From Escherichia phage slur02, in sequence record NC_028927.1: a stretch of 64,000 nucleotides of DNA. The stretch is one strand, 5' to 3'. Every line of letters starts with the position of its first letter. Position 1 is the first letter of the stretch. This document shows positions 43,969 through 44,990 of the stretch, one piece after another. Position numbers and translations under genes: made by a program. The notes beneath the pieces were generated by a model. It did not search any database, was not told the DNA's origin, and saw nothing but the letters and a program-made list of their open reading frames with translations.

Positions 43969-44044
43969 TGGTCGAGGCAGTAGGGATCGAACCTACGACC
44001 TAGGACTTAGAAGGTCCTTGCTCTTCCTTCTGAGCTATGCCCCG
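43969..44044 (-). tRNA. tRNA-Arg (anticodon UCU), CCA encoded
   Basis: manual cloverleaf: acceptor CGGGGCA/TGCCTCG, anticodon loop CTTCTAA, T-arm GTAGG-TTCGATC-CCTAC. Confidence 0.85.
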
Positions 44045-44048
44045 TAAT

Positions 44049-44124
44049 TGGGGTGACCGATGGGAGTCGAACCCATGACTACGAGAATCACAATCTCGAG
44101 TTCTACCAACTGAACTACGGCCAC
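44049..44124 (-). tRNA. tRNA-His (anticodon GUG), CCA encoded, no G-1 encoded
   Basis: manual cloverleaf: acceptor GTGGCCG/CGGTCAC, discriminator C, anticodon loop TTGTGAT; resembles E. coli tRNA-His as recalled. Confidence 0.8.
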
Positions 44125-44238
44125 ATTAATACCTACTCCAACAATCAAGATGTCTTCACACGAAATTAAGAGAAGAGTGATCAGTTCAACCCCTATAATC
44201 GCGTCAAGTAGATATTAATGTGACAGTTGTCACAAATT

Positions 44239-44313
44239 TGGCGGACGTGATAGGATTCGAACCTATAACCAATCGCTTAACAGGCGATCGCTCTACCATT
44301 GAGCTACACATCC
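44239..44313 (-). tRNA. tRNA-Asn (anticodon GUU), CCA encoded
   Basis: manual cloverleaf: acceptor GGATGTG/CACGTCC, anticodon stem ATCGC/GCGAT, loop CTGTTAA. Confidence 0.8.
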
Positions 44314-44317
44314 AAAT

Positions 44318-44404
44318 TGGTGGGGAGTGGTGGAGTCGAACCACCCGAGTCGCAATGACAATGAATTTACAGTCCACACCGCTACCTCTACGGGATAACT
44401 CCCC
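44318..44404 (-). tRNA. tRNA-Tyr (anticodon GUA), type II, CCA encoded
   Basis: acceptor GGGGAGT/ACTCCCC, anticodon loop CTGTAAA, long variable arm, T-arm GGTGG-TTCGACT-CCACC; anticodon stem has two G-U pairs. Confidence 0.7.
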
Positions 44405-44417
44405 TAATTCATAATTT

Positions 44418-44491
44418 GGTGGCCCTGGGTGGAATTGAACCACCATCTGGCGATTATGAGTCGCTTGCTTGAACCTTCCAGCTACAGGGCC
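44418..44491 (-). tRNA. tRNA with CAU anticodon (T4 tRNA-Ile-like, or Met), CCA encoded
   Basis: acceptor GGCCCTG/CAGGGCC, anticodon loop CTCATAA; occupies the Ile position of the T4 cluster order. Confidence 0.7.
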
Positions 44492-44492
44492 T

Positions 44493-44568
44493 TGGTGCTG
44501 ATTGACGGAATCGAACCGCCGACGTCCTCATTACAAGTGAGTTGCTCTACCTACTGAGCTAAATCAGC
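44493..44568 (-). tRNA. tRNA-Thr (anticodon UGU), CCA encoded
   Basis: acceptor GCTGATT/AATCAGC, anticodon loop CTTGTAA. Confidence 0.85.
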
Positions 44569-44574
44569 AAAAAC

Positions 44575-44664
44575 TGGCGGAGGCGATAGGATTTGAACCT
44601 ATGAGTCGCCGGAGCGACTGCCGGTTTTCAAGACCGGTGCATTAAACCACTCTGCCACGCCTCC
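44575..44664 (-). tRNA. tRNA-Ser (anticodon UGA), type II, CCA encoded
   Basis: acceptor GGAGGCG/CGCCTCC, anticodon stem CCGGT/ACCGG, loop CTTGAAA, long variable arm. Confidence 0.85.
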
Positions 44665-44666
44665 AG

Positions 44667-44740
44667 TCTCCATACAAGGATTTGAACCTTGGACCTCCTG
44701 ATCCCAAATCAGGCGCTCTACCAAACTGAGCTACACGGAG
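44667..44740 (-). tRNA. tRNA-Pro (anticodon UGG), CCA not encoded
   Basis: acceptor CTCCGTG/TATGGAG, anticodon loop TTTGGGA; 2 nt from tRNA-Ser. Confidence 0.8.
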
Positions 44741-44750
44741 TAAATTAAAT

Positions 44751-44824
44751 TGGAGCGGATAATGAGAATCGAACTCACATCATCAGATTGGAAGTCTGAG
44801 GTAATACCATTATACGATATCCGC
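44751..44824 (-). tRNA. tRNA-Gly (anticodon UCC), CCA encoded
   Basis: acceptor GCGGATA/TATCCGC, anticodon stem TCAGA/TCTGA, loop CTTCCAA. Confidence 0.85.
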
Positions 44825-44829
44825 AAATT

Positions 44830-44916
44830 TGGTGCGAGAAGTGGGACTCGAACCCACAAGGAAATCATTCCGCAGCATTTTAAGTGCTGTGCCTTTACCA
44901 ATTTGACCATTCTCGC
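44830..44916 (-). tRNA. tRNA-Leu (anticodon UAA), type II, CCA encoded
   Basis: acceptor GCGAGAA/TTCTCGC, anticodon stem CAGCA/TGCTG, loop CTTAAAA, long variable arm. Confidence 0.85.
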
Positions 44917-44917
44917 G

Positions 44918-44990
44918 CTGGGAATAAAGGACTCGAACCTTTGCATCCTGGAATCAAAATCCAGTGCCTTACCAACTTGGCTAATTCCCA
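44918..44990 (-). tRNA. tRNA-Gln (anticodon UUG), CCA not encoded
   Basis: acceptor TGGGAAT/ATTCCCA, anticodon loop TTTTGAT; 1 nt from tRNA-Leu. Confidence 0.8.

Follow-up and report, generated by a model that had tools for sequence, protein, structure and literature searches.

Why does a T4-type coliphage carry eleven transfer RNA (tRNA) genes when T4 carries eight, and what lies in the gap that interrupts the eleven? To address these questions we analysed a stretch of 64,000 nucleotides (nt) from Escherichia phage slur02 (record NC_028927.1), called the window below. An earlier note, made by reading the sequence, had regarded the genes for Tyr, Asn and His as additions to a canonical T4 set. 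It had proposed that these three, whose anticodons all have the form GUN, replace host tRNAs destroyed by anticodon nucleases of the colicin E5 type. Our analysis leads elsewhere: the argument from colicin E5 does not hold, the three genes do not form a unit, and the evolutionary change is read here in the opposite direction. The array is probably best explained as a T-even RNA operon that has escaped invasion, in which Tyr and Asn would meet a demand for supply and His would belong to a separate module with an RNA element of its own. That module is the fresh lead: an unannotated structured RNA joined to a tRNA-His that has no encoded G at position −1.

The tRNA array of slur02

ARAGORN, run over the whole window, called 11 tRNA genes at 43969–44990 and placed every one of them on the minus strand. 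In the direction of transcription they read Gln–Leu–Gly–Pro–Ser–Thr–Ile2(CAU)–Tyr–Asn, then a gap of 114 base pairs (bp; 44125–44238), then His–Arg. Genes, order and gap are those that the note had obtained by folding the sequence by hand. The Rfam model RF00005 matched ten of the eleven at 59–77 bits, against a gathering score of 29. The remaining gene, Tyr, drew just a sub-threshold match to tRNA-Sec (30.9 bits); it has a long variable arm, which can cause such misses. Direct reading of the sequence places an encoded CCA in nine of the 11 genes and, as noted earlier, in neither Gln nor Pro.

To which amino acid does the CAU gene belong? The determinants by which TilS recognizes tRNA-Ile2 are C4–G69 and C5–G68 in the acceptor stem and an anticodon arm like that of ileX. 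The acceptor stem of the phage gene begins GGCCC (C4/C5), its 15-nt anticodon arm, GCGACTCATAATCGC, is that of E. coli ileX, and it is identical to ileX at 58/76 positions and to metT at 49/77. We assign it to the Ile2 type rather than to elongator tRNA-Met, in keeping with the note, and predict that it carries lysidine. The His gene is identical to E. coli hisR at 61/77 positions and has the same anticodon loop, UUGUGAU. Judged by sequence, all eleven genes look functional.

The Tyr gene has relatives well outside the T4 group. By eye, its 3′ half is close to that of the T5 tRNA-Tyr, and BLAST found T5-like records about 84% identical to it. Tyr and Ile2(CAU) (44314–44491) are 95–97% identical to genes of rV5-like (Vequintavirus) phages. 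These Vequintavirus and T5-like matches suggest exchange of tRNA genes across unrelated coliphage families. The same stretch, 44314–44491, is also matched by 18 records labelled Campylobacter phage.

None of this gene set is new. Over this region the sequence matches Escherichia phage slur04 (Tequatrovirus), whose RefSeq record annotates all 11 tRNAs, at 100% identity, and the same block occurs in hundreds of further phage records. It is a known, annotated tRNA operon of a T4-type coliphage, with a gene set annotated in hundreds of genomes.

Homing endonucleases and the direction of change

By its own annotation and by ARAGORN, T4 has eight tRNA genes, and relative to T4 the genes for Tyr, Asn and His are indeed extra. 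The two arrays share their flanking genes. Six of the eight T4 tRNAs are 88–100% identical to those of the window, five of them at 97% or more (Leu and Gly identical, Pro, Ser and Thr nearly so), and homology resumes at rnaD and rnaC, which are 97–99% identical. Between its divergent Ile and Arg alleles T4 has segB, the gene of a GIY-YIG homing endonuclease; the window has Tyr, Asn, the gap and His at that place. Two smaller differences were seen within the shared genes. Ser lacks an encoded CCA in T4, unlike the Ser of the window. The T4 tRNA-Ser classically needs 3′ trimming and CCA addition, a need that would not apply to the window gene since its CCA is encoded. Gln and its T4 counterpart disagree at 9 positions, none of them outside the 17-nt anticodon arm, and the other 56 positions are identical. 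The arm is TAGCA-CTTTGAC-TGCTA in T4 (locus L001, 5459–5531), and that of T2 is of the T4 type with one base different. In the window, in RB51 and in 11B_SA_NWU it is CTGGA-TTTTGAT-TCCAG, with the loop of E. coli glnU. We read this difference as a patch-like allele swap limited to the anticodon arm.

How do closer relatives compare? T2 (GenBank LC348380) has the same operon, order and alleles, with Ile2(CAU) identical at 75/75 positions, Tyr at 86/87, Asn at 74/75 and Arg at 74/76, and it shares the downstream open reading frame (ORF) and rnaD/rnaC. It lacks the 190-bp module of hairpin, RNA element and His, and an unnamed ORF (L031, 1840–2241) replaces its Thr. In RB51 a truncated SegB-like gene (L033, 2235–2843) stands in place of Pro, and His is missing; according to the RB51 record, the Asn and Tyr genes of this phage are conserved in RB14. 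Tyr and Asn thus occur without His in both T2 and RB51. The phage 11B_SA_NWU keeps all eleven tRNAs and has an endonuclease gene (L032, 880–1500) between His and Arg. The inserted ORF is a different one in each of T2, RB51 and 11B_SA_NWU, and two of the three are annotated as endonucleases. The 11B_SA_NWU insertion adjoins His, and the CCA of that His is lost. Klebsiella relatives of the genus Jiaodavirus have all four GUN tRNAs together with Lys, Trp and others.

The T4 arrangement was accounted for some time ago. T2L, RB1 and RB3 lack segB, the preferred 27-bp site of SegB lies inside the T2L tRNA-Asn gene, in its 3′ part, and in a co-infection of T4 with T2L, homing displaces about 1250 bp with the genes for Met(CAU), Tyr, Asn and Arg (Brok-Volchanskaya et al. 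2008, PMC2330249). The difference between T4 and the window is therefore one already explained in 2008 by SegB homing. The Asn of the window departs from that of T2 in the D loop only, and the 3′ halves are identical; the exact 27-bp site is not given in the text of PMC2330249. Two tRNA-Asn alleles occur in Tequatrovirus, differing mainly in the anticodon stem and T stem. At positions 36–41 the Asn of RB51 (L033, 1804–1878) reads UAAUCA, a motif of the AriB type (see below), and those of the window and T2 read UAAGCG.

Free-standing homing endonucleases of the SegB kind would cleave tRNA genes at their 3′ ends and exchange the neighbouring tRNAs for their own cassette. The absence of Tyr, Asn and His from T4, of Thr and His from T2, and of Pro and His from RB51 would then follow from the replacement of neighbouring tRNAs by such cassettes, and the array of the window would be the version that endonuclease genes have not invaded. 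Frequencies in the GenBank phage collection point the same way: at least 413 phage records cover the pair Tyr+Asn to 80% or more, the five-gene block including His is covered in 185, and the Ile–segB–Arg block of T4 in 126 (IMG/VR contributed only a few T4-like contigs). We infer that the arrangement widespread in Tequatrovirus has Tyr–Asn(–His) between Ile(CAU) and Arg, and that the eight genes of T4 are a derived, minority state. The three genes are then not additions to a canonical set, as the note had held; T4 would have lost them.

Codon demand and the supply of tRNA

If Tyr and Asn belong to the common arrangement, what keeps them there? We compared 100 ORFs of the window (19,179 codons) with 42 annotated E. 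coli K-12 genes (14,748 codons). Relative to the host sample the phage uses Tyr 1.78-fold, the highest ratio of any amino acid, followed by Lys (1.72-fold) and Asn (1.56-fold). His, at 0.66-fold, ranks nineteenth of the twenty. The note had inclined away from codon-usage tuning; the enrichment of Tyr and Asn speaks in its favour for these two, and His is depleted. Supply for the phage's own demand is most likely the leading reason for these two, the AT-rich phage proteome using both far more than does the host. Extra copies would also protect the phage where a host system depletes tRNA-Tyr or tRNA-Asn, and such buffering is a plausible added benefit.

A structured RNA between tRNA-Asn and tRNA-His

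What occupies the 114-bp gap? ARAGORN found no tRNA or pseudo-tRNA in it, Rfam at E up to 1 on 43600–45400 returned nothing that overlaps it, and a sigma-70 promoter scan found no promoter on its minus strand. The RNA of the gap folds at −32.7 kcal/mol (z = −4.36). Comparison of the window with T2 reveals one clean indel of 190 nt, made up exactly of the small hairpin, the element and His. In Klebsiella, Enterobacter and Proteus phages BLAST matched His together with about 100 nt upstream of it at 82–91% identity. A 98-nt query of the element matched at least 354 phage records, once in each, and was almost never annotated.

We collected 12 distinct variants of the element from GenBank, IMG/VR and metagenome loci. 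The ten that were folded singly all have the same P1–P2–P3 architecture (table 1). P1 measures 11–15 bp in these folds and 14–15 bp in a scan for helices flush with the tRNA. In an alignment of 11 sequences P1 is 99.4% paired, with four pairs changed on both sides; all four P3 pairs are likewise changed on both sides, and the element as a whole has 11 such pairs. Covariation scores 0.310 in this alignment, against 0.187 in shuffles (0/500) and 0.066–0.151 in slid controls, and pairing stands at 85% against 31–50% in the slid controls. RNAalifold independently predicts the same helices. P1 contains 20 G·U cells and one C·A cell, so the strand that folds is the tRNA-sense strand. With compensatory changes above all controls, the gap element has the marks of a conserved structured RNA.

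How is the element placed? A covariance model built on it finds exactly one copy in each T4-like locus (44125–44219 in the window) and none in T4. The 3′ strand of P1 ends right before G+1 of His, and U−1 forms the last pair of the helix in all variants. Among the eleven tRNAs of the window such a flush helix was found at His (14 bp) and, more weakly, at Gln (9 bp) only. Erwinia phage FBB1 keeps just a minimal hairpin at the site.

Several candidate identities were tried and rejected. A hammerhead or other small ribozyme was set aside; the CUGAUCA and GAAG stretches are not kept in the Proteus variant or in variants L013, L014, L017, L018 and L019. A kissing loop between P2 and P3 was significant in two variants only and was not adopted. 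Homology to rnaC or rnaD of T4, or to RNA III of T5, gave no signal by BLAST or covariance model. The T4 RNAs are nonetheless comparable in kind, being small stable RNAs of unknown function in the same tRNA operon, and the window has both at 43341–43603. They lie 3′ of Arg, whereas the element lies 5′ of His, and rnaC has a tRNA-like T arm, which the element lacks.

Two further observations concern the element and its neighbourhood. Enterobacter phage SonariX (L010, 1678–1796) and Proteus phage ABTNLPp2 (L011, 1672–1793) have another conserved, unannotated stretch of about 115 nt between Gln and the His leader element, which may be another small RNA. And Pseudomonas phage PsgM02F (OR584013.1, 165 kb) has an element 100% identical to that of slur04, an odd host label for a sequence of the Tequatrovirus type.

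A tRNA-His without G−1

In E. coli a genome-encoded G−1 that pairs with C73 serves histidyl-tRNA synthetase as its major identity element (PMC9976931). The His gene of the window is canonical in its GUG anticodon, C73 and 3′ CCA. At −1 it has T, as the note had observed in pointing to the missing G−1, and so have all 12 T4-like variants and T5; the canonical encoded G−1 is not there.

Does the arrangement occur elsewhere? In T5 (NC_005859) a misc_RNA named rnaIII, with the annotation 'stable RNA with unknown functions', lies directly 5′ of tRNA-His(GUG), just as the element does in the window. The tRNA-His of T5 also has U−1 and C73 and no G−1. A 15-bp A/U-rich closing helix, with a 4-nt spacer included, ends exactly at U−1 and encloses a folded RNA of roughly 100 nt. 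T5-like contigs have other helix sequences, variable interiors and a minimal-hairpin variant, as do the T4-like relatives. The number of inner hairpins differs between rnaIII and the element, and so do the phage families (Demerecviridae and Straboviridae). According to the T5 record, replacement of the anticodon turns this tRNA-His into an effective amber suppressor, from which it follows that the body of the tRNA is at least usable in vivo. A literature search of limited scope returned nothing relevant on phage tRNA-His without G−1, on T5 RNA III or on T4-like phage genomes with 11 tRNAs.

We propose that His belongs to a separate module of about 190 bp, in which a self-folding RNA of 95 nt is closed by a 14-bp helix ending at U−1 of the G−1-less tRNA-His; the RNA may have a role in tRNA-His maturation. 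A bolder proposal, which we advance only tentatively and hold to be rather doubtful, is that folded RNA and tRNA form one functional module of a design common to T4-like and T5-like phages. The leader helix would pair U−1, stack on the acceptor stem and govern 5′ maturation, and the released RNA would be a stable small RNA. RNase P may then cut one nucleotide upstream and leave a −1 residue without the G−1:C73 pair; alternatively, a prior double-strand cut may be required.

Alternative explanations

Could Tyr, Asn and His have been gained together as a GUN set that replaces host tRNAs destroyed by a colicin E5-type nuclease? The three are, as the note stated, among the four substrates of colicin E5 (PMC1635277), an answer of coliphage tRNAs to colicin E5 has already been put forward as a hypothesis (PMC10264068), and extra supply of a tRNA can by itself rescue phages from tRNA-depleting systems (PMC11555353). 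Yet the trio does not travel together, His lying in an indel of its own and being absent where T2 and RB51 have Tyr and Asn, and the fourth substrate, Asp(GUC), is not among the ARAGORN calls. Nor do the anticodon loops look like those of escaped tRNAs. A published model has nuclease-resistant phage tRNAs arise by anticodon-loop mutation (PMC10264068), and the note had advised a search for substitutions relative to the host. The loops show none: Tyr, Asn and His share theirs, base for base, with tyrT, asnT and hisR, YGUN is kept, and changes are confined to the stems, such as U39 to G in Asn. Colicin E5 needs just YGUN at positions 33–36 and cleaves even unmodified minihelices (PMC1635277), so the phage tRNAs can have no intrinsic sequence resistance to a nuclease of this type. 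The literature cited here describes no phage-defence system of the E5 type, and the enrichment of Tyr and Asn, first and third, is an outcome that the note itself had named as favouring codon supply. We regard a joint GUN set as most improbable. A better case can be made for counter-defence by supply, tRNA by tRNA, as the main reason for retention: Tyr against PtuAB of the retron-Eco7 type, Asn (with Thr) against AriB of PARIS, and His against some further system. That phage tRNAs can stand in for depleted host tRNAs, as the note supposed, has precedent for Tyr (PMC11555353) and for Asn (PMC12409363). The tRNA-Tyr of T5, SP15 and a Klebsiella phage rescues from retron-Eco7 by overexpression, as does E. 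coli tRNA-Tyr under a phage promoter (PMC11555353), and the Tyr of the window is related to the T5-like gene, as described above. E. coli tRNA-Asn(GUU) is a secondary target of AriB, cleaved at U36-A-A-U-C|C41, and Lys, Thr and Asn of T5 jointly block PARIS (PMC12409363). The window and T5 tRNAs have the same anticodons, and in both phages Asn reads UAAG at positions 36–39, the G39 breaking the UAAU motif of AriB. The anticodon arms of Gln and Asn are, moreover, where allele differences among close relatives cluster. Against this, the phage has no tRNA-Lys, which is the primary target of AriB and is required for evasion of PARIS. T4, which has Thr, is PARIS-sensitive all the same and needs the tRNA-Lys of T5 (PMC12409363), so Asn alone would not defeat PARIS. 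The published tests used T5-family tRNAs rather than those of T-even phages, and the link to retron-Eco7 likewise comes from tRNAs outside that group. High codon demand covers Tyr and Asn without any appeal to defence, and the two explanations overlap, both being supply mechanisms. Defence as the main reason for retention is thus possible, though clearly the less probable account.

Might the variable tRNAs instead be near-neutral cargo, their presence reflecting the last sweep of a homing endonuclease? Different viable phages lack different tRNAs (Thr, Pro or Tyr/Asn/His), and every loss adjoins an inserted ORF, an endonuclease gene in T4, RB51 and 11B_SA_NWU and the unnamed ORF in T2. But the genes are intact, they keep cloverleaf and identity elements, they are 98–100% conserved over hundreds of isolates, and Tyr and Asn match the highest relative demand for amino acids; we think neutrality unlikely. 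A last alternative concerns the gap, whose conservation might be that of a DNA feature, such as a miniature inverted-repeat element whose terminal repeats measure 14 bp, or else a promoter or operator that serves His–Arg. The ends of the element are inverted repeats, and its interior varies strongly, to the point of deletion in Erwinia FBB1 and a T5-like variant, as if terminal repeats enclosed a cargo. The feature, however, is single-copy in each genome and always at the same site, flush with +1 of His. Its repeats co-vary so as to keep pairing, with the excess of G·U over C·A given above, as expected of RNA and not of transposase or operator sites. No sigma-70-like promoter was found on the minus strand of the gap, and the record of T5 lists the counterpart as a stable RNA that has been observed. 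Copy number, fixed position and G·U asymmetry led us to discard the inverted-repeat and promoter readings; a DNA-level explanation of any kind is very improbable.

Our preferred account, the uninvaded operon with Tyr and Asn for supply and His as a separate module, has weaknesses of its own. The direction of change is a probable one, drawn from the frequency of arrangements, the mosaic pattern and published homing. Supply leaves His unexplained, as the phage uses this amino acid less than does the host, and Lys is about as enriched as Tyr and yet has no tRNA in the window; the E. coli codon sample comprises just 42 genes. With E values up to 10 allowed, the covariance model of the element found no match in the T5 locus, so the parallel with T5 is one of layout only, and one T5-like variant (L045) lacks the flush helix. 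Co-transcription of the operon and excision of the 95-nt RNA, finally, are predictions.

The operon and its flanks

The features of the region are collected in table 1. In our picture the tRNAs and stable RNAs make up a single minus-strand operon, whose transcript would run from the structured leader ahead of Gln to the terminator that follows rnaC. The Gln leader has a fold z of −2.76, in a minimum-energy structure that does not contain its 9-bp helix. This helix echoes the design of the His leader and could match the RNase III-dependent step in the maturation of T4 tRNAs, E. coli RNase III being reported to take part in that process (McClain 1979; Gurevitz & Apirion 1983, as cited in PMC4810235). 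Two neighbouring ORFs gave no match in Pfam and families of unknown function alone in PHROGs. The 116-codon ORF has a stop codon that overlaps the 5′ end extrapolated for the rnaD homologue, and T4 has no ORF there.

Table 1. Features of the tRNA and stable-RNA operon in the slur02 window, in the direction of transcription.
Feature	Coordinates	Strand	Remarks
5′ leader of operon	44991–45064	−	upstream of Gln; 9-bp A/U-rich complementarity ATTATTAAC/GTTAATAAT ending exactly at Gln −1, span 74 nt (flush-helix scan)
tRNA-Gln(UUG)	44917–44990	−	no encoded CCA; ends ...CCCAG-C, abutting Leu; anticodon arm unlike T4 allele
tRNA-Leu(UAA)	44830–44916	−	ARAGORN, Rfam; identical to T4
tRNA-Gly(UCC)	44751–44824	−	ARAGORN, Rfam; identical to T4
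tRNA-Pro(UGG)	44666–44740	−	ARAGORN, Rfam; no encoded CCA, ends ...GGAGA-CT
tRNA-Ser(UGA)	44575–44664	−	CCA encoded (44575–44577); TAA there in T4 (L001, about 5113–5118)
tRNA-Thr(UGU)	44493–44568	−	ARAGORN, Rfam
tRNA-Ile2(CAU, predicted lysidine type)	44417–44491	−	allele differs from T4 Ile, 47/75 identical
tRNA-Tyr(GUA)	44318–44404	−	class II, long variable arm; loop CUGUAAA, as in E. coli
tRNA-Asn(GUU)	44239–44313	−	loop CUGUUAA, as in E. coli; position 39 G, not U
Spacer	44220–44238	−	6-bp hairpin GUGACA ACUG UGUCAC; only the TGTCACAT half common to other genera
95-nt RNA element	44125–44219	−	P1, 14-bp closing helix; P2, variable hairpin; P3, 3–4 bp stem with 6–7 nt loop
tRNA-His(GUG)	44049–44124	−	C73 and CCA; U at −1 instead of G
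tRNA-Arg(UCU)	43969–44044	−	allele differs from T4 Arg, 48/76 identical
Coding sequence, 116 aa (slur04 gp110; PHROG 3355, unknown function)	43600–43950	−	between Arg and rnaD; also in T2 and RB51
rnaD homologue (T4 species 2 RNA)	43486–43603	−	alignment 43486–43600, query 4–119; 5′ end 43603 extrapolated; 115 identical in aligned 116 of 119 nt
rnaC homologue (T4 species 1 RNA)	43341–43479	−	137/139 identical
Terminator-like hairpin and T-run	43267–43290	−	closes the unit

Implications for the T-even phages

What do these results change? The gene set and the idea of counter-defence are both already in the literature, and the finding in the form first stated changes little. T4, on the other hand, is a poor reference for a 'canonical' T-even tRNA set. 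Comparative and defence studies that contrast T4 with phages of the T2, T6 or BASEL type should weigh that these phages differ in Tyr, Asn, His, Thr and Pro. The arrangements of T4, of the T2 type and of the slur04 type are near ready-made material for asking what the Tyr and Asn genes do against systems of the retron-Eco7 or PARIS type.

The coupling of the RNA element to His makes two matters testable: the purpose of the stable RNAs in phage tRNA operons, and the manner in which a tRNA-His without G−1 is matured and charged. If the element and the tRNA do act as one module, the phages would have an answer of their own, not previously described, to histidine-tRNA identity.

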